Source: Planctomycetota bacterium
GTDB lineage: Bacteria; Planctomycetota; UBA1135; GCA-002686595
Length of the DNA stretch: 64,000 bases
Direction of reading: 5' to 3'
NCBI GenBank assembly: GCA_028278425.1
Contig: JANQEJ010000327.1
Span: 16,382-80,381 of the forward strand
Part shown: in pieces, positions 4,813-60,279 of the stretch
How the letters are laid out: each line of letters begins with the position of its first letter
How positions within the stretch are numbered: position 1 is the first letter of the stretch
Made by a program: the position numbers and the translations under genes
Notes under the pieces: generated by a model
Database searches by the model: none
Told to the model about the DNA's origin: nothing
The model's input: the letters and a program-made list of their open reading frames with translations, nothing else

Positions 4813-6108
4813 ATGAGTCAATCGACAGAGCAAGTGCATTTCACGGTGGACGGCGCGGGTTTCACCGAGCTGGTCCGCAACATCCTTCTCGGCGAGCGGC
4901 CGGACGTCGCGTGGCGGATGGCCGCGCGTGGTCTCGTGGGCGACGGCAGCGAGGCGGTCGCTCGGGGCCTGTTGGACGGCACGCTCCGCCTCGTCAACGT
5001 CTCCAAGGACACCGTCACGGCCGCGCCCGATGCCGACGAGGACTACCAGCGCGATCTCCGGTACATCTACGCGGGGCGCCGGCGTGACGCGGACGGCACG
5101 TGGTGGCGTCCGGCCGCCGTCGTGCTGGGCGCGAGCGCAGCGGCTCGCCGCGCAGCCGCAGAGAAGGCGGACACCGAGCAGCCGTCGCCCGGCGCTGCGC
5201 TGCGCGAGTGGGCGCGCCTGGTGGCCGAGTACTACGCCGACGGCCACGAGCGGGTGAGACTGGTCGGGGGGCGTTGGACGATCTGGGAGCCATGCGGCGA
5301 GCGGCCCTTCTGGTGGGACTCGCCCTCGACGTGGCAGGCCGCGTGGTCGGAGGCCGAGGCCGCGAAACGCGCGATCGAGGAGCGCGGCGCCGCCGATTCA
5401 CGAGTGCTTATCCATGAGCTTGCGCGCGAGGGCGACGCGGATTGGGTGCACGAGGTGTTTGCGCATGCCGAGGCGGAGCGGCGTGCGATCTGGCACTGGG
5501 AGCTCGGAGAGCAGGTGCGCGCGCAGGCTGGCGACGACACCTTCGAGCTCGTCGTCGAGGCGTCTGGCGACGGGCCCGAGCGGCGGCTGACGGTGCCCAG
5601 GGCACCGTTCTGGCACTGGGCGCTGGCCAGCACGAAGCTCGCCCACCTCGCGCCTCCGTGGGAGGTCGTGTCGCCGGTCGGGCTGAAGCTGACATTCGAC
5701 GACCCCTACCACAGCGACTGGATGCTGGGCGCTGGCCTCGACCTGCGGGAAGACTACAGCGCGTTCGGCTCCGAGCCGGTGAGCGACGCTGCGATGGACG
5801 CGCGCTTTGAGCTGCAGAGGCGGCTTGGTTCGTACGAGGTCGCGGTCCTGGCCGACGGCGGCGAGGTGACCGGCGTGGTGGGCAAGGACGTCGCGGTCCT
5901 CCCGACCCTCGGTCCGGAGCATGCCGAGGTCGCGATGGTGAGCCGGGCCATCATTGCGGAGCGCGGCGGCGCGTTGGCTCACCTGGCGGTCGTGGGCCGC
6001 GAGCTCGGCCTGACGATCGTCCGCGACCGAGACGCGGTCTTTCGCTACCCGAAGGGCTGCGTCGTCACCATCAATCCCAGCAACGGCACCGTGAGGATCC
6101 AGCAATGA
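4813..6108 (+). CDS. protein with C-terminal PEP-utilising-enzyme mobile (swivelling phosphohistidine) domain
   Basis: C-terminus GEVTGVVGKDVAVLPTL...AIIAERGGALAHLAVVGRELGLTIV...GCVVTINPSNGTVRI matches the PF00391-type motif GG..SH.A..ARE.G.P; start set at ATG 4813 because the upstream in-frame part is Arg-rich junk. Confidence 0.65.
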   Translation: MSQSTEQVHFTVDGAGFTELVRNILLGERPDVAWRMAARGLVGDGSEAVARGLLDGTLRLVNVSKDTVTAAPDADEDYQRDLRYIYAGRRRDADGTWWRPAAVVLGASAAARRAAAEKADTEQPSPGAALREWARLVAEYYADGHERVRLVGGRWTIWEPCGERPFWWDSPSTWQAAWSEAEAAKRAIEERGAADSRVLIHELAREGDADWVHEVFAHAEAERRAIWHWELGEQVRAQAGDDTFELVVEASGDGPERRLTVPRAPFWHWALASTKLAHLAPPWEVVSPVGLKLTFDDPYHSDWMLGAGLDLREDYSAFGSEPVSDAAMDARFELQRRLGSYEVAVLADGGEVTGVVGKDVAVLPTLGPEHAEVAMVSRAIIAERGGALAHLAVVGRELGLTIVRDRDAVFRYPKGCVVTINPSNGTVRIQQ

Positions 6109-6737
6109 CCACTGAACCCCAAGAGCCGGAGGCCCAGCCTCCCGACCAGGAGGCGCCGGAGCGATCGGAGCAGCGCTCGCCGCTGGAGAGGTGGCGAGAC
6201 GCGCCGCCCGAAGCGCGGGAGAGCGTGCTCTGCATGCTGTACCAGGAGTACCTGCGCGTCACCCGGAGCGGACACATCGCGGTGATGCGCCACAACGCGC
6301 TGCGGGAGCAGCTCAGCACGACTGAGCCGCGCGACACCGAGATCGCGATCGGCGCCACGGCTGGCGCGTATGCCAGCGTCAGGAGCGCGCAGCTCGAGGC
6401 GGCGGCGCTGGATGCGGCACACCAGGTGCTCGTGGACCAGGCGCAGCCTCAGGATTCCGGCGACGAGGGGCTTTCGTTCGCGGCGTTGGTGTCTCGCATC
6501 GCTTACGCGAAGGAGATCGTCTCCCGCTGGGAGCAGCGCTACGAGCGGCGCATCGAGGTCCTGCGCGACCGGCTGAGGGAGGAGCAGGACCCGTACACGA
6601 GGGGCGTTTTGCTCGCGAGGCAGACGGTCTACACCACCGTGCTCACGGAGCTGATGGGGGCCTGTAGCCGCGGCCAGATGCCGCGGCCGCCCGAAGAGGA
6701 CGCCGAGCTTCGGCGCGACGAGGAGCAGAGATCGTGA
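6105..6737 (+). CDS. hypothetical protein
   Basis: 210-aa ORF, ATGA-coupled on both sides. Confidence 0.55.
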   Translation: MTTEPQEPEAQPPDQEAPERSEQRSPLERWRDAPPEARESVLCMLYQEYLRVTRSGHIAVMRHNALREQLSTTEPRDTEIAIGATAGAYASVRSAQLEAAALDAAHQVLVDQAQPQDSGDEGLSFAALVSRIAYAKEIVSRWEQRYERRIEVLRDRLREEQDPYTRGVLLARQTVYTTVLTELMGACSRGQMPRPPEEDAELRRDEEQRS

Positions 6738-7321
6738 ACGACCTTCCCTTCGACATCGACAAGCCCGGGGAGATCAGGACGCTCAGCGGTCACTACCTCG
6801 ACGTGTTCGACCCGGACCCCGCGACGCTGGACATTCGCGACATCGCCCGCGGTCTCGCGCTGCGACCGCGGTACGGTGCGCAGTTGCCGGAGGACTACTC
6901 CATCGGAGAGCACTCGTGCCACGTGCATGACGTGGTGCAGCGGCTCTATCCGAAAGCCACTCGCGCGGAGCTGTTGGCGTCGCTGCTGCACGACGCGCCC
7001 GAGGCCTACATTGGCGACATGCCCAAGCCGATCAAGATGAAGCTGCCGGGCTACCAGGCGCTCGAGACCATTCTTCTCGGTGCGATCTTCGAGCGGTGCC
7101 ACCTCGACGTGTCGTTGCTCGACAAGGGCTCGCCGATCGACCGCATCGACAAGCAGATCCGCTACGCCGAGCGGTTCTGGATCTACAACGACCCCATTCC
7201 GGAGGAGGCGCCCGACTGGGCGCACAAGGTGATCGTGCGCTTCTGGAGCAGCGAGCGCGCCGAGGCGGAGTTCCTGGGACGGTACGCGGCGCTCGTGGGC
7301 CCGCTGCCGCGGGGCTACTGA
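6734..7321 (+). CDS. HD-domain phosphohydrolase (YfbR-like 5'-deoxynucleotidase family)
   Basis: YSIGEHSCHVHDVV and LLHDAPEAYIGDMPKPIK motifs; GTG start overlapping the previous TGA. Confidence 0.75.
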   Translation: MNDLPFDIDKPGEIRTLSGHYLDVFDPDPATLDIRDIARGLALRPRYGAQLPEDYSIGEHSCHVHDVVQRLYPKATRAELLASLLHDAPEAYIGDMPKPIKMKLPGYQALETILLGAIFERCHLDVSLLDKGSPIDRIDKQIRYAERFWIYNDPIPEEAPDWAHKVIVRFWSSERAEAEFLGRYAALVGPLPRGY

Positions 7322-7947
7322 TGGCGCGCCCCGAGGATGTCTCTCACGGGCACCTGCACGGCGAGCTCGTGATGATCCGCTTCGAGCGGCTCTGCGCGCC
7401 CGAGCGTGAGTTCGTGATGGAAAAGGGCTACGGCCCCGACACGGTCGCGCGCGTGGTCATGGTCTCGAGCATGGGCGACGTCGGCCTGACCCGAAGGCTG
7501 GCGGCCGAGCGCGGCTACGACCTCCGGCTCGACCCGCCGAAGGTGCGCGTCCTGACGGGGCGCGACCGGGAGACGGCGAAGCGGCTCGTGAAGCTCGCCC
7601 GGGCGGCTCGGGGCAAGGAGATGGTTACGGCCGCGATGGCTGCCATCTACCAAGCGCTCGAGGCCGCGCGAGACGAGGGGCCGCTCGCCGACGCGGGTGC
7701 GGTGCAGTTCATCCACCACCCGAACGGCGCGCTCGTCGACGCGACGCGCTGTCCCCGGCACGCGGAGGACGAAGAGGTCCGCACGGCCTACCGTCGCGAG
7801 CACGGGTCGCCTCGTGGCGTCGAGCTGCCCTGCATGTGCCGGTTGGTGGCACGAGTGATCTACGCGAGCGAGGAGGTGGAGGCGGCGGCGGTCGAAGCGA
7901 TCAAGCGCTCCTACGAGCGGAACGCAGGGGCAGCTCGGCGCCTTTGA
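7321..7947 (+). CDS. hypothetical protein; its stop codon lies inside the first hairpin repeat
   Basis: ATG 7321 overlaps the previous TGA by 1 nt; C-terminus ...NAGAARRL* is encoded by repeat copy U1 (7929-7956). Confidence 0.55.
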   Translation: MARPEDVSHGHLHGELVMIRFERLCAPEREFVMEKGYGPDTVARVVMVSSMGDVGLTRRLAAERGYDLRLDPPKVRVLTGRDRETAKRLVKLARAARGKEMVTAAMAAIYQALEAARDEGPLADAGAVQFIHHPNGALVDATRCPRHAEDEEVRTAYRREHGSPRGVELPCMCRLVARVIYASEEVEAAAVEAIKRSYERNAGAARRL

Positions 7948-8210
7948 AGCCGTGACTGGAACGAACGACGGCAGCCCGGCGCCTTCGAAGTCGGGACGTG
8001 TAGGTGTGCGCGGCGAGCCCCGAAAGGCGCCACGAGAGCGTGAAGGCAGCTCGGCGCCTTTGAAGCTGGGACCGATCGGGAAATCGCGGAGCGTGAAGGC
8101 AGCTCGGCGCCCTGAAGCCGGGACGGGGGCCAAAGGCAGCTCGGCGCCTTTGAAGCCGGGACCGCATACGGCGTGAGGAGAAGGCAGCTCGGCGCCTTTG
8201 GGTCGGGAAA
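7929..8210 (+). CRISPR. upstream CRISPR-like array: 6 direct copies of a ~28-nt hairpin repeat with irregular spacing
   Basis: Copies start at 7929, 7970, 8045, 8098, 8135 and 8183. Subfamily consensus is GGCAGCTCGGCGCCTTTGAAGCCGGGAC. Spacers are 13, 47, 25, 10 and 20 nt. The last copy is degenerate. Confidence 0.6.
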
Positions 8211-8226
8211 AAGAGGAGCGAAGAGG

Positions 8227-9693
8227 ATGGTCAAACGAAGAACGAGCTCGGTCCCGTGCCGGGTGTACAAGTACGGCGCGCTGCCCCCGGAGCCGCGCGA
8301 TGTCGTGGACGAGCAGATGTGGCTGGCGCACCGCTACTACAACGACCTGATCGAGGTCGAGCACGCTCGGCGCCAGGCCTTCGTCTGGGCGCGCGACCGC
8401 GTGTCGGCGGAGGAGCTGCGTGAGGTCTCGAAGCAGATCGAGGAGGAGCGCAAGGACGTCTGCAACGCGCGCGTCCGCGACCCTGAGTGGGGGCCCGGGC
8501 TGCGCGGCACGTGCGGGCTCTACTCGGGCACCTACCTGCTCATCGAGGCGCAGGCCGAGCAGGCGCGGAAGAAGAAGGGCGCGCCGCCTCGGTTCCGGCG
8601 CTGGACGGGGGAGGGGGCGATCGGCATCCAGTGCGCCAAGCCCATCCCCGTCTCGGAGCTGATGGACGGCACCAACCGCTACGCGTCGATCGACACGTCT
8701 CCGCGCTACCACATCCGCACGGGGCGCCCCATCAAGAACGGCGCGCTGCTCACCTGCGTCGTCGGGCCCGGAGGCACCAAGGCCAGCTTCTCGATGAAGC
8801 TGCACCGGCCGCTGCCGGAGGACGGCCTCGTGCGCTGGATCAAGATCCTGCGGCGCCGCACTGCCGAGACGAGCGTCGCGGGGGTGCGGGAGAAGTGGGA
8901 GGTCCACATCACCGTGGAGTCCTCGACGTTCATTCGGCCCGAGCGCAAGGGACCTGTCGCGGCCATCGACCTGTGTTGGTCGAAGGGGCGCGTCGGGCAC
9001 CTGCTCGGCGAGGACGGATATGAGGAGCCGATTCTGCCGCACACGGCCATCGTGAAGAAGCTCCGCTACGCCGACTCGGTTCGGTCGATCCGGGACGGGT
9101 ACCTGAACGTGGCCAAGGAGTGGGCGGCCATCAACATCGACCCGCGCGTCCGGAGCTGGCACCGGATGCACGCGAAGGGGCTGATGCGGAAGATCCGCGA
9201 GTGGAGAGAGGAGGGTCACGACGTCGCCGTGCTGGAGGCGTGGCGCCATCGCGACACCCACCTCTACCAGATCGAGCACAACGTGCGGGCCAAGGCCAAG
9301 CGCCGCCTTCAAAACGACTACCGCGTGTGGGCGCGTCGCGTCGTGGACCGCTACCCGGTGATTATCCTCGAGGACCTCGACCTGTCGGAGCTCGCGACCG
9401 AGAACAGCGGCGGCAAGTGGGGCAACCACCAGCGCTTCGTGTACGCGCCCAGTCGGCTGCGTGACGCGCTGGCCAATGCGGGCGCGCAGATCGTGAAGGT
9501 GCCGGCCGCGTACACGAGCGCGCTCTGTCACTGCTGCGGCAAGGAGGTCGGTGGCACCTACCACCGGCCTCGCTGCGAGGAGTGCGACTGGGTGGGCGAC
9601 CGGCGCGAGAACGCTGTGCGGAACATCCTCGCGGATGGCATGGAGGCGCTGGGCAGAGCGCCGAAGAGAGAGGAGGCAGCTCAACGCCCGTAG
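8227..9693 (+). CDS. TnpB/Cas12-like RNA-guided RuvC endonuclease (miniature type V-like effector)
   Basis: TnpB hallmarks in order: N-terminal CRVYKYGALPP..RYYNDLIE; PPRFRRW; RuvC-I VAAIDLCWSK; RuvC-II YPVIILEDLDLSEL; Zn ribbon AAYTSALCHCCG...RCEECDW; RuvC-III GDRRENAVRNIL. SD gaggag lies 8 nt before ATG 8227. Confidence 0.85.
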   Translation: MVKRRTSSVPCRVYKYGALPPEPRDVVDEQMWLAHRYYNDLIEVEHARRQAFVWARDRVSAEELREVSKQIEEERKDVCNARVRDPEWGPGLRGTCGLYSGTYLLIEAQAEQARKKKGAPPRFRRWTGEGAIGIQCAKPIPVSELMDGTNRYASIDTSPRYHIRTGRPIKNGALLTCVVGPGGTKASFSMKLHRPLPEDGLVRWIKILRRRTAETSVAGVREKWEVHITVESSTFIRPERKGPVAAIDLCWSKGRVGHLLGEDGYEEPILPHTAIVKKLRYADSVRSIRDGYLNVAKEWAAINIDPRVRSWHRMHAKGLMRKIREWREEGHDVAVLEAWRHRDTHLYQIEHNVRAKAKRRLQNDYRVWARRVVDRYPVIILEDLDLSELATENSGGKWGNHQRFVYAPSRLRDALANAGAQIVKVPAAYTSALCHCCGKEVGGTYHRPRCEECDWVGDRRENAVRNILADGMEALGRAPKREEAAQRP

Positions 9694-10641
9694 AAGTTGA
9701 GACTTGATGAAGGCAGCTCGGCGCCGTTGAAGCCGTGACGACCTGTTGAGGGCGCTCGGAGGCAGCTCGGCGCCGTTGAAAAGTCGAGACCTGATCGGCG
9801 TGCGTCATCCAAGGCCGTGGAAAGGCGGACTGAGGCAGCTCGGCGCCGTACAAGACCGAGACGTTGGTGTCGTCACACGTCGTCAATGACCGAGACTGGT
9901 GAAGCCGGTTGGTGAGAGGCAGCTCGGCGCCGTACAAGCCGAGACGCTACGCCGCCGCGATCGGAGGGACCGGTCACGAGATGACGGAGGCAGCTCGGCG
10001 CCGTCGAAGACCGAGACTGGTGAAGCCGGTGGTGAGAGGCAGCTCGGCGCCATTGAAAGCCGAGAGGCGAAGCAGAAGTCGGAGAGGCAGCTCGGCGCCG
10101 TTGAGCCGGGACGCAATAGGCACCTCGGCGCCGTTGAAGCCGAGACGCGAAGAGATGAGGCAGTTCGGAGCCGTGGAATCCGAAAGGCGAGCGGGAGTCT
10201 CTACGGACAACCAAGGGAGGCAGCTCGGCGCCGTTGAAGCCGGGAAGCGGGGCCATGTCAGGAGGCAGCTCGGCGCCGTTGAGCCGGGACGCAATGAATG
10301 CGGACAAAGGAGGCAGCTCGGCGCCGTTGAAGCCGAGACAGCGCCGACTCTGGCCCCTCCGAGCAGCGCATGCCCCACTACGTGGCAGTTCGGCGCCGTA
10401 GAAGACCGAGACGTTTGGGAGCCCGGCCTACTCACGACAAGGTCCGGTAGAGGTAACTCAACACCGTTGAAGTTGGGACTACTGCTGGGGCCGGTGAAGG
10501 CAGCTCGTCGCCTGAGCAAAAGACGAGACCCCGCTGCGACTGACCTGACCGGAGGCAGCTCGGCGCCGTTGAAGCCGAGACGAGCGCTCACGCACCGCCT
10601 CGTGATGACATGAGGCACCTCGGCGCCGTACAAGCCGAGAC
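9675..10641 (+). CRISPR. downstream CRISPR-like array: 18 direct copies of the hairpin repeat with irregular spacing
   Basis: Copies start at 9675, 9712, 9761, 9834, 9918, 9989, 10038, 10086, 10119, 10159, 10219, 10264, 10312, 10384, 10452, 10499, 10554 and 10614. Consensus is GGCAGCTCGGCGCCGTTGAAGCCGAGAC. Spacers are 6-55 nt. A truncated remnant lies at 9886-9897. The first copy overlaps the nuclease stop codon. Confidence 0.65.
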
Positions 10642-41067: not shown

Positions 41068-42044
41068 CAGACAGCGACGGGCGCGGTGATCTTCGGGTGC
41101 GGTGTGTAGCCGTGGAGTCCGATGTTCTCCCAGCGGATGGACATCAGCGCCTCAAGCGGAGAGCAGTTCTCCGGGGTGCCACCGACGTAGAGCTGGGGAG
41201 ACGGAGCGGGCATGCGCGACAACTGCTCCTTCACCTGCTCGACGTGGTTCTTGTAGATGTGGACGTCGCCGAACGAGACGACCAGGTCGCCGGCCCGATA
41301 GCCGAGCACCATGGCGATCATCTCAGTCAGCAGCGCGTAGCTCGCGATGTTGAAGGGGACGCCCAGAAAGACATCCGCGCTGCGCTGGTACATGTGGCAG
41401 CTCAGGACGCGCCGATAGCGCCGCTCGTGATCGGGGGTGTGGCCGTAGGGGGAAGGGTGCGGAGAATCTTCCTCGTGCGTTTCGAACTGGAAGAGCGTGT
41501 GGCAGGGAGGCAACGCAACGGTGTTGGCCTCGCGCGGGTTCCAGCCTGAAACGATGATGCGTCGGGAGTCGGGCGAGTTCTGGAGCAGATCGAGCGCGTT
41601 GGCGATCTGGTCGAAGCCGTCGTCTCGGTAGCTGAGGCGGGATACTCCTGGCGAGCCCATGATGTGGGTCCGCGTTCCTGGTGTCGCACCGAACCGCCTC
41701 CACTGATGTCCGTAGACTGGACCGAGGTCGCCTTCTGCACGTCCGAAGCGCGCACACTGCTCCTTCGTGGCCCACTCCTTCCAGATGTCCACGCCAGCTT
41801 CGCGTAGCTCTTTCTCGTCCGTCGAACCGCGCAGGAACCAGAAGAGCTCCTCGGCGATCCAGCGCAGCGGGAGCTTCTTGGTCGTCAGCAGCGGGAAGCT
41901 GTGGCGCAGGTCGAACACCAGCCGCTCACCGAAGAGCGACAGCGTGCCGGTGCCAGTGCGGTCGCCCTTCGAGCGACCGTGAAAGAGGATCTGCCGGAGC
42001 AGAGCCAGGTAGGCGAGGTCGTGGTAGCGGTGCGGTGGTTTCAT
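41067..42044 (-). CDS. thyA: thymidylate synthase (ThyA type) with insertions
   Basis: GDRTGTGTLSLFG, LLTTKKL, FWFLRGSTD, DLGPVYGHQWR, SRRIIVSGWNP, active-site PPCHTLFQF, YQRSADVFLGVPFNIASYALLT, GDVHIYKNH. Confidence 0.9.
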   Translation of the reverse strand: MKPPHRYHDLAYLALLRQILFHGRSKGDRTGTGTLSLFGERLVFDLRHSFPLLTTKKLPLRWIAEELFWFLRGSTDEKELREAGVDIWKEWATKEQCARFGRAEGDLGPVYGHQWRRFGATPGTRTHIMGSPGVSRLSYRDDGFDQIANALDLLQNSPDSRRIIVSGWNPREANTVALPPCHTLFQFETHEEDSPHPSPYGHTPDHERRYRRVLSCHMYQRSADVFLGVPFNIASYALLTEMIAMVLGYRAGDLVVSFGDVHIYKNHVEQVKEQLSRMPAPSPQLYVGGTPENCSPLEALMSIRWENIGLHGYTPHPKITAPVAV

Positions 42045-60207: not shown

Positions 60208-60279
60208 TTGCGCGAGAGGGACTTGAACCCCCGGCCTCCGGGTTATGAGCCCAGCGAGCTACCACTGCTCCACCGCGCG
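60208..60279 (-). tRNA. initiator-type tRNA-Met (anticodon CAT), no encoded CCA
   Basis: Reverse complement: CGCGCGG-TG-GAGC-AGTGGTA-GCTC-G-CTGGG-CTCATAA-CCCGG-AGGCC-GGGGG-TTCAAGT-CCCTC-TCGCGCA-A. It has the C1xA72 mismatch, three consecutive G-C pairs closing the anticodon stem, and A11:U24. Confidence 0.85.

Follow-up and report, generated by a model that had tools for sequence, protein, structure and literature searches.

The sequence analyzed here is a stretch of 64,000 nt (termed the window in the following) from a Planctomycetota bacterium (assembly GCA_028278425.1, contig JANQEJ010000327.1, positions 16,382 to 80,381 of the forward strand). It contains a gene for a protein resembling the CRISPR effector Cas12m, which is flanked by two repeat arrays of six and 18 units, respectively, as delimited by manual and structure-based parsing (Table 1). 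This locus is likely to be a phage-borne type V-M CRISPR-Cas12m system whose two co-oriented arrays were built by a ruler and are now frozen and eroded.

Effector gene and layout of the two arrays

The open reading frame (ORF) between the arrays is uninterrupted and shows a coding-like GC content at third codon positions (GC3). Judged by sequence and predicted fold, it encodes a Cas12m (type V-M) homologue. A phmmer search matched residues 112-470 to the PDB entry 23vw_A, "CRISPR-associated DNA-binding protein Cas12m" (E=2.3e-32), and the protein carries the Pfam domain Cas12f1-like_TNB. An AlphaFold2 model based on an alignment of 24 sequences reached a mean predicted local distance difference test (pLDDT) value of 86.6. 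The top four Foldseek matches of this model were Cas12m2 (8hhm, 8hhl and 8hio) and GoCas12m (8pm4) with E values of 2e-21 to 1e-18, and Cas12f and TnpB ranked behind Cas12m (E about 1e-12). The NCBIfam TnpB models scored far under their threshold (48.9 versus a cut-off of 100 bits). An IS200/IS605 element with TnpB and omega RNA was considered and rejected, since the locus holds many short handles instead of one omega RNA, the TnpB models stay below cut-off and Cas12m is structurally nearest.

The RuvC-I aspartate (AAIDLCW), the RuvC-II glutamate (VIILE) and a CxxC...CxxC zinc ribbon are retained in the protein. The RuvC-III motif (window positions 9587-9607, residues ~455-468) reads GDRRENA; 19 other family members have (W)DQDxNA. 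A motif alignment revealed GDRR(E/I)(N/G)A at RuvC-III in the window protein and its three close relatives (P0002-P0004). Compared with other Cas12 proteins and TnpB, the position of the catalytic RuvC-III aspartate is presumably occupied by arginine in this subclade. Its members are the shortest of the family (488-520 aa as called), the window effector being about 100 aa smaller than typical members.

The window was searched for the repeat core GGCAGCTCGGCGCCGTTGAAGCCGAGAC allowing up to three mismatches, with 100 shuffles as control. Ten matches were obtained, every one on the + strand, versus 0/100 in the shuffles. The start-to-start distances of the downstream array are 37, 49, 73, 84, 71, 49, 48, 33, 40, 60, 45, 48, 72, 68, 47, 55 and 60 nt; a caller based on the 14-nt core skips one divergent unit, so that 68 and 47 nt are then read as 115 nt. 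In the upstream array the periods are 41, 75, 53, 37 and 48 nt and the spacers 13, 47, 25, 10 and 20 nt. The downstream distances and upstream spacers had already been listed in a preliminary description of the sequence and were all exact. Its characterization of the spacing as irregular and non-CRISPR-like was confirmed as well: unit distances in the window range from 33 to 84 nt, with four units at 71-75 nt. The regular pattern of V-M systems, with a repeat of ~36 nt and a spacer of ~36 nt, is not seen in the window, where a repeat of 28-30 nt is conserved and four of the 22 periods are canonical.

Almost all "spacers" in the window finish with GA or AA. The conserved unit is thus taken to begin 2 nt earlier, giving 30 nt, and the true variable segments are consequently ~2 nt shorter than first listed. 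The counts behind the range of 6-55 nt in the preliminary description are correct, but the segment boundaries are not. Five or six segments of 6-13 nt fall short of the 17-bp guide-target duplex observed for Cas12m2 (PMC10442227), in agreement with the earlier remark that several are too short to act as guides; about 16 of the 22 are long enough for guiding.

The downstream handle has the layout (GA)-GGC-AG-CTCGGC-GCC-loop-GCCGAG-AC. The first upstream unit overlaps the stop codon of the ORF 7321-7947, and the first downstream handle (9675-9703) includes the cas12m stop codon TAG (9691-9693). Since each array begins on the stop codon of the preceding gene, the arrays appear to be embedded in an operon. 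Neither array possesses a leader, and no promoter or terminator was predicted on the + strand between positions 6000 and 12000. A structure-aware scan of the window revealed no solitary handles outside the two arrays. A reading as coding repeats was discarded, as the periods are not multiples of three and neither array is covered by an ORF with coding-like GC3.

Table 1: Features of the cas12m locus (positions refer to the window).
Feature	Position	Strand	Evidence
Upstream mini-array, 6 units, variant handle GGCAGCTCGGCGCCTTTGAAGCCGGGAC	7929-8209	+	Seen also in an independent assembly (L003)
Last upstream handle (8183-8209), then 17 nt with ribosome-binding site AGAGGAG, followed by the cas12m ATG (8227)	8183-8226	+	
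cas12m-like effector gene, 488 aa	8227-9693	+	Sequence, Pfam, predicted fold
Downstream array, 18 units, handle 28-31 nt, variable segments 6-55 nt	9675-10641	+	
Broken repeat, 3' half (CGTCGTCAATGACCGAGAC) only, within an apparent 55-nt "spacer", then duplicated 21-nt spacer	9878-9897	+	
Second copy of the duplicated block: repeat 3' half, spacer TGGTGAAGCCGGTGGTGAGA, start of next repeat	9999-10051	+	
Exact 34-nt duplicate of 10262-10295 (handle and GCAAT), then a lone A and the next handle, giving a 6-nt "spacer"	10084-10117	+	
Other copy of the 34-nt duplicate, then the full 21-nt spacer GCAATGAATGCGGACAAAGGA	10262-10295	+	

Structure of the repeat handle

The window units retain 28-30 nt at the 3' end of the 36-nt repeat of the family, and the ~6-8-nt 5' flank is gone. 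The consensus repeats of 19 arrays follow one layout, in which a 5' flank (often GTCGCAAY), an arm of 3-4 nt, two bases and a stem arm of 5-6 bp are followed by the complement of the first arm, a loop, the second stem arm and AC. The 36-nt repeat forms of the family are GTAGAAGC/GTCGCAAY + GGCAGCTC... The window handle comprises a hairpin and a 3-bp pseudoknot, ends in GAC and lies on the same strand as cas12m. This architecture equals that of the published CRISPR RNAs (crRNAs) of Ms, Tf, Ap and Un Cas12m; the Ms crRNA, for example, consists of GUAGCAAC-GCC-UA-GCUCAG-GGGC-UCGAAAA-CUGAG-AC and a 20-nt spacer (PMC11013384 Table S5).

Covariation was used for the assessment of this structure, because folding by minimum free energy (MFE) gave no significant stability. 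Over the 19 arrays 90% of the cells were paired and compensatory changes occurred at 9/9 pairs. None of 500 shuffles reached the observed value, and slid controls paired at 31-43%. For the 24 units of the window, 97.9% of the stem and pseudoknot cells were paired, with compensatory changes at six of nine pairs and again 0/500 shuffles. Compensated pairs among these units include CTCAAC/GTTGAG, CTCGTC/GACGAG, TTCGGA/TCCGAA and GGT/ACC, and the G-U cells (n=12) are compatible with the + strand alone. To judge from these substitutions, the handle structure is under selection.

The mature crRNA of GoCas12m keeps ~30 nt of the repeat in a triplex and pseudoknot fold; Cas12m pre-crRNA is cleaved within the repeat to yield crRNAs of ~50-60 nt, and the processing site of V-M systems is still unresolved (PMC11013384). 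The conserved 30 nt of the window have the length of the repeat-derived part of mature GoCas12m crRNA. As the window keeps the same ~30 nt, only the mature-crRNA part of the repeat is conserved. On neither strand of the window was an anti-repeat detected (repeat pattern, up to three mismatches), which is consistent with a system free of trans-activating CRISPR RNA (tracrRNA) like other V-M systems. Rfam yielded no match for the array region, neither at gathering score nor with E up to 1.

Spacing in related loci and reshaping of the units

Among the relatives recovered by a protein search, three were close (67-72% identity) and more than 100 were distant. An alignment-based scan led to 35 viral loci in IMG/VR and six contigs of metagenome-assembled genomes, and a repeat-pattern scan to a 113-kb IMG/VR contig (L004, the same as L012), on which a gene of 27.6% identity and about 40 units were recognised; a peptide-pattern search of IMG/VR with a single protein gave no match. 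In the GenBank phage Virus Rctr197k (KX853510.1, L061, 110803-114219) a gene with 29% identity at 99% coverage adjoins an annotated CRISPR. The record from 2016 labels this Cas12m-like gene "similar to transposase". The Rctr197k array is regular near the gene and eroded distally.

Unit spacing was compared with a family set of 22 related loci, mostly IMG/VR viral contigs, comprising 320 units and excluding the window. To locate the units, the indel-free 14-nt core of the respective repeat was used for every array. The main period of the family is 72-74 nt, and 198 of the 320 units fall at 69-77 nt. The gene-proximal unit is canonical in 19/20 arrays, and the gap between gene and array (leader) measures 120-270 nt. 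The short units (n=106) are located farther from the gene (mean relative position 0.60 versus 0.45, permutation p ≤ 0.0004), which holds without the two largest arrays. The 72-74-nt mode, the canonical first units, the leaders, the distal position of short units and the four window units at 71-75 nt argue that a ruler-type integrase probably built the arrays and that erosion set in afterwards. The preliminary description had proposed that the array was not built, or not maintained, by a ruler. It was right about maintenance, given the reshaped units and the lack of cas1, cas2 and cas4 nearby, but probably wrong about construction, in view of the family mode and its polarity.

Among the short units of the family 23 lie at 48-50 nt, 19 at 51-53 nt, 15 at 54-56 nt and 11 (3% of 320) below 48 nt. 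This lower edge at 48 nt was compared with a uniform 28-68-nt null for short units (binomial p = 3e-17). In the window four of 22 distances (18%) are canonical and seven (32%) are below 48 nt, versus 11/320 in the family (Fisher p = 3e-5). Comparable erosion was found only in L035, L020, L012 and L016. Evidently, erosion is furthest advanced in the window within this set, and acquisition has stopped. In the comparison with related genomes suggested in the preliminary description, regular 72-74-nt periods dominate, and irregular eroded units recur in many contigs.

The repeat type of the window was found in regular form in L054, where a 36-nt repeat (GTAGAAGCGGCAGCTCAGCGCCTTTGAAGCTGAGAC) alternates with spacers of 34-37 nt at periods of 67-73 nt and one of 51 nt. 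It was also found in an irregular array, L046, from the metagenome scan; the eroded form occurs in L012 as well. The L054 repeat (L054:9341-9996, contig Ga0193723_1000293, 19 kb) is almost identical to the upstream variant of the window, and three isolated copies lie on the same contig (L054:1837-1862, L059:4220-4245 and 5083-5108). With 120 family proteins as queries, no Cas12m homologue was detected in the 13.5 kb fetched for the L054 region; the single-match metagenome loci L047-L060 contained no Cas12m homologue.

Two further observations concern distant family members. On the - strand of L004:6340-6445 (IMGVR_UViG_3300018432_000013) two orphan handles, GGTAGCTCAGCACCTTCGAAGCTGAGAC and GGCAGCTCAGCACCTTTGAAGCTGGGAC, are located ~1.6 kb past the 40-unit array, behind several small ORFs; GGTAGCTCAGCACCTTCGAAGCTGAGAC has the compensated pseudoknot GGT/ACC. 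The 153-kb viral contig IMGVR_UViG_3300032770_000005 carries two Cas12m-like genes ~50 kb apart (L010, 51766-65067, and L029, 2787-16448), and an array was detected beside the L010 copy only.

Within the window two duplications are apparent. A block of ~44 nt had been reported to occur twice; the alignment extends over 9878-9931 and 9999-10051 with 50/54 positions alike and a single 1-nt indel, and the first copy stands behind a repeat without its 5' half. The identical string of 32 nt, likewise noticed before, is real and extends to 34 nt (10084-10117 and 10262-10295). The 6-nt segment GCAAT|A that follows its first copy aligns with GCAAT + 15 nt + A of the 21-nt spacer, in agreement with the proposed 15-nt deletion. 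All remaining spacer pairs were no more similar than shuffled controls. In the region 10084-10150, where handles lie 6 nt apart, the MFE fold pairs the outer arms together and the inner arms together (z only -1.18); closely set handles may misfold in this way, although this fold is not significant.

These data bear on an adaptation-independent origin, which the preliminary description had also considered. Units would have arisen de novo, for example by serial duplication of an omega-RNA-like guide module, or by ruler-less insertion not involving Cas1. Duplications were demonstrably active and no adaptation genes are located nearby, and the idea has been raised for a myxophage V-M array (bioRxiv 10.64898/2026.09.14.751636). 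Nevertheless, such an origin is very improbable: the spacers are mutually unrelated apart from the two duplications, which fits capture of diverse DNA and not internal generation. Moreover, the 72-74-nt mode, canonical first units and leaders of the family indicate polarised ruler insertion, four window units still lie at 71-75 nt, and L054 is regular with the same repeat type.

That collapsed or chimeric repeats in the assembly produced false short units is extremely unlikely. Short-read assemblies (L001, L002 and L003) do break at repeats, an exact 34-nt duplicate is present at 10084 and 10262, and positions 10113-10641 come from a single assembly. However, the independent Logan assembly L003 (SRR20820740) matches window positions 5227-10113 with 100% identity and ends inside this duplicate. 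All upstream units and the first 8-9 units downstream are thus reproduced, including the segments of 8, 10 and 13 nt. In addition, the in- and out-junctions of the 34-nt duplicate require two copies per genome, and similar irregularity was found in many independent contigs and a GenBank phage.

For a ruler-built and subsequently eroded system the following mechanism is proposed. Read-through from upstream genes would transcribe the region. Cas12m would bind each 28-30-nt handle folded as a hairpin with a 3-bp pseudoknot; cleavage of the RNA would take place immediately 5' of the handle, and its 3' end would be trimmed. The initial 17-20 nt past the handle would direct the protein to double-stranded DNA flanked by a protospacer adjacent motif (PAM). 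This DNA would be bound uncut, so that a competitor element or a host gene could no longer be transcribed or replicated. For the window locus, transcription, processing and DNA binding without cleavage are inferred by analogy with studied Cas12m systems. By the same analogy the window array would encode guides, a function assumed because of family membership and the selection on the handle.

The ancestral units would have consisted of a 36-nt repeat and a spacer of ~37 nt with a period of 72-74 nt, inserted at the gene-proximal leader. The first ~6 nt of the repeat and the 3' end of the spacer are absent from mature crRNA. In a tight phage genome that lacks both an adaptation module and a leader, they would be dispensable. 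Deletions would strip these parts, while unequal recombination would duplicate some units. Units would shrink down to ~48 nt, about as long as a mature Cas12m crRNA and its protein footprint. The floor of 48 nt is close to a handle of about 28-30 nt plus ~20 nt, and a constraint by footprint or processing is the explanation we favour; the mispairing of the two handles 6 nt apart agrees with it, though not significantly. In L012 and the window, both eroded, the units lack the 5' flank, and at the floor their spacers measure 17-20 nt. The units of the window below the floor (33-47 nt) are most likely recent, non-guiding by-products. The shortest of them is an exact duplicate with a 15-nt deletion, and this exactness marks it as recent.

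According to a more far-reaching version, the 48-nt floor is a physical ruler given by the footprint of the Cas12m ribonucleoprotein, the phage arrays are naturally minimised to back-to-back guide cassettes of mature length, and the handle-only units bracketing the gene are self-processing sites which limit cas12m expression and cut the operon transcript. We regard this version as possible but unlikely.

A different interpretation of the same erosion is that of a dead array, a decaying pseudo-CRISPR without function whose spacing is neutral debris. Seven of the 22 units lie under the family floor, one repeat is broken, there is neither a leader nor an adaptation gene in the neighbouring ORFs, and protospacer searches came out empty; the presumed replacement of the RuvC-III aspartate by arginine in the subclade points in the same direction. 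Nevertheless, we judge it improbable. The seven sub-floor units retain good handles, compensatory changes keep the handles of the window paired beyond all shuffles, and the uninterrupted 488-aa ORF shows coding-like GC3 and a confident Cas12m fold. The protein subclade is kept at 67-72% identity in three relatives, and the repeat follows the gene in P0002 and P0003, whose contigs end there. The 48-nt floor of the family is incompatible with neutral deletion, and Cas12m works without RuvC cleavage (PMC11013384, PMC10442227). Of the decay suspected in the preliminary description, the erosion of the spacing can thus be retained, but not that of the handles.

Several observations weigh against the interpretation as a ruler-built, guide-encoding system that was later eroded. 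Single-unit MFE folding was no more stable than shuffles. The spacers produced only chance matches of 12-14 nt in the array-masked window; the best match of the array among INPHARED phages and PLSDB plasmids (E up to 10) had an E of 0.09, exact 20-mers of three full-length spacers had 0 matches in IMG/VR, and 327 family spacers matched 646 kb of related loci at chance level. The P0002 and P0003 contigs stop at the first repeat and hide the arrays of the closest relatives, and positions 10113-10641 are supported by one assembly only. An account of sub-floor units as rare by-products is weaker for the window, with seven of 22, than for the family. Finally, short units of mostly regular relatives hold the full 36-nt next repeat and spacers of just 12-18 nt. 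The latter in part contradict a floor defined as handle plus a spacer of at least 17 nt, which was therefore abandoned; the 48-nt floor instead limits the handle-to-handle distance and not the guide length.

Genomic setting and comparison with known systems

When 17 ORFs of the neighbourhood, up to ~8 kb away, were scanned with Pfam, none matched Cas1, Cas2 or Cas4. The neighbours include an M23 peptidase, an HD-like protein, an AAA ATPase, an HTH protein and a PEP-utiliser domain protein, and the window encodes a terminase-like gene (PHROG match). The cas12m genes of relatives adjoin genes for DNA polymerase A, UDG, ThyA and NDK. The terminase, the M23 peptidase and the occurrence of relatives on viral contigs make the setting phage-like. 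A region on the - strand (41069-42025) shares 75% nucleotide identity with L002:1759-2706, a gene called as thymidylate synthase in L002 (Pfam Thymidylat_synt). Phages with related Cas12m thus share further genes in a different arrangement. A tRNA gene was found at 60208-60279 on the - strand (Rfam RF00005, 59.6 bits).

Arrays on both sides of the gene are also present, independently, in L020 and L045, and the last upstream repeat of L020, a distant relative, ends 24 nt before the ATG. The closest relatives, L001 and L002, have no upstream array. Just 5' of their cas12m start the motif TTGTTTCGACGCnCTTTTGGTT is conserved (L001:5965-5998, L002:3158-3184); the window has the six-unit array at this place.

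The position of the handles raises the question of whether some or all units are non-guiding, the short-spacer units being handle-only RNAs, and titrate a host or rival Cas12m as an RNA anti-CRISPR, or control cas12m and its neighbours as Cas12m binding or cleavage sites. A handle precedes the cas12m start by 17 nt and another overlaps its stop codon, L020 and L045 show related arrangements, and the units below the floor hold perfect handles. Standalone repeats 5' of cas12a are common and were implicated in autoregulation (bioRxiv 10.1101/2023.03.03.530964). We nonetheless rate a regulatory or decoy role as quite unlikely. About 16 of the 22 segments are of guide length, and the lack of an upstream array in L001 and L002 shows that the subclade as a whole does not share this feature. 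The short unit that appears youngest, with its 6-nt segment, looks accidental as an exact duplicate carrying a 15-nt deletion. The upstream spacers show no complementarity to the local promoter region; against the rest of the window none of at least 15 nt was found, and shorter seeds were indistinguishable from chance. With the cognate effector between the arrays a pure decoy role is unneeded, and the decoy or sponge of the preliminary description found no positive support, though it is conceivable for the handle-only units.

If the arrays were indeed built by a ruler and then eroded, the locus represents a natural deletion experiment, in which a handle of ~30 nt and about 20 nt of spacer were kept. 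It would show which parts of a Cas12m array are required and would predict the processing site. The 48-nt floor of the family bears on Cas12m crRNA biogenesis as well as on array detection, and eroded arrays will be truncated or overlooked by standard CRISPR finders, which presume regular spacing. Frozen arrays would evolve by partial loss of units and local duplication, not by loss of whole units. In the open-access papers searched, neither irregular, partly deleted units nor a length floor were found described for V-M arrays. With 488 aa, an altered RuvC-III motif and a 30-nt handle, the window effector lies below the Cas12m proteins of 577-614 aa with solved structures and could be of interest to builders of compact DNA-binding tools.

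Type V-M systems bind DNA without cutting it and are enriched on plasmids as well as in some prophages (PMC11656645). The window locus resembles MmCas12m/Cas12m2, GoCas12m and MsCas12m (Wu et al. 2022; PMC10442227; PMC11013384) in its homologous effector, the absence of an anti-repeat and the handle layout. As in known V-M systems the handle is located 5' and the guide 3', no adaptation module is part of the locus, and the carrier is a mobile element. Unlike these systems, the window possesses a smaller effector (488 versus roughly 540-655 aa) with GDRRENA instead of WDQDxNA, and only the mature-handle part of the repeat. Its spacing of 33-84 nt, the arrays abutting coding sequence on both sides and the missing leader are further differences.

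MvCas12m of myxophage MV-1, a protein of 610 aa with an eight-spacer array, was presented as the first phage case in a preprint of September 2026 (bioRxiv 10.64898/2026.09.14.751636). Both loci are phage-encoded and of high GC content, with an adjacent array, no cas1, cas2, cas4 or tracrRNA and no spacer targets found. Compared by description, the MvCas12m locus differs from the window in its intact D-E-D triad, the larger protein and one consensus repeat, with no irregular spacing reported. The 35 IMG/VR loci and the GenBank phage of 2016 suggest that phage-borne Cas12m is much commoner than a "first report" implies.

Standalone repeat elements and virus mini-arrays (bioRxiv 10.1101/2023.03.03.530964; PMC11656645) share with the window the repeats directly 5' of the effector, the short spacers and the viral context. 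In contrast to these, the window has six upstream units instead of one and a full effector, and complementarity to the cas promoter was not found. It also differs from phage RNA anti-CRISPRs and solitary repeat units, as the cognate cas12m sits between its arrays.

The shortening of the window units has counterparts in the laboratory. Minimal Cas12a arrays follow the same principle. Arrays have been called "longer than necessary" owing to acquisition, and Cas9 arrays were shortened in the laboratory (PMC10478742). In those engineered arrays, sequence which is removed during maturation can be deleted without loss of targeting, and the same would hold for the window. Unlike them, the shortening in the window is apparently natural and repeated in phage genomes. 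In comparison with known systems, the locus is distinguished by a compact Cas12m whose RuvC-III motif diverges and by frozen arrays, apparently minimised in nature, that flank the gene.

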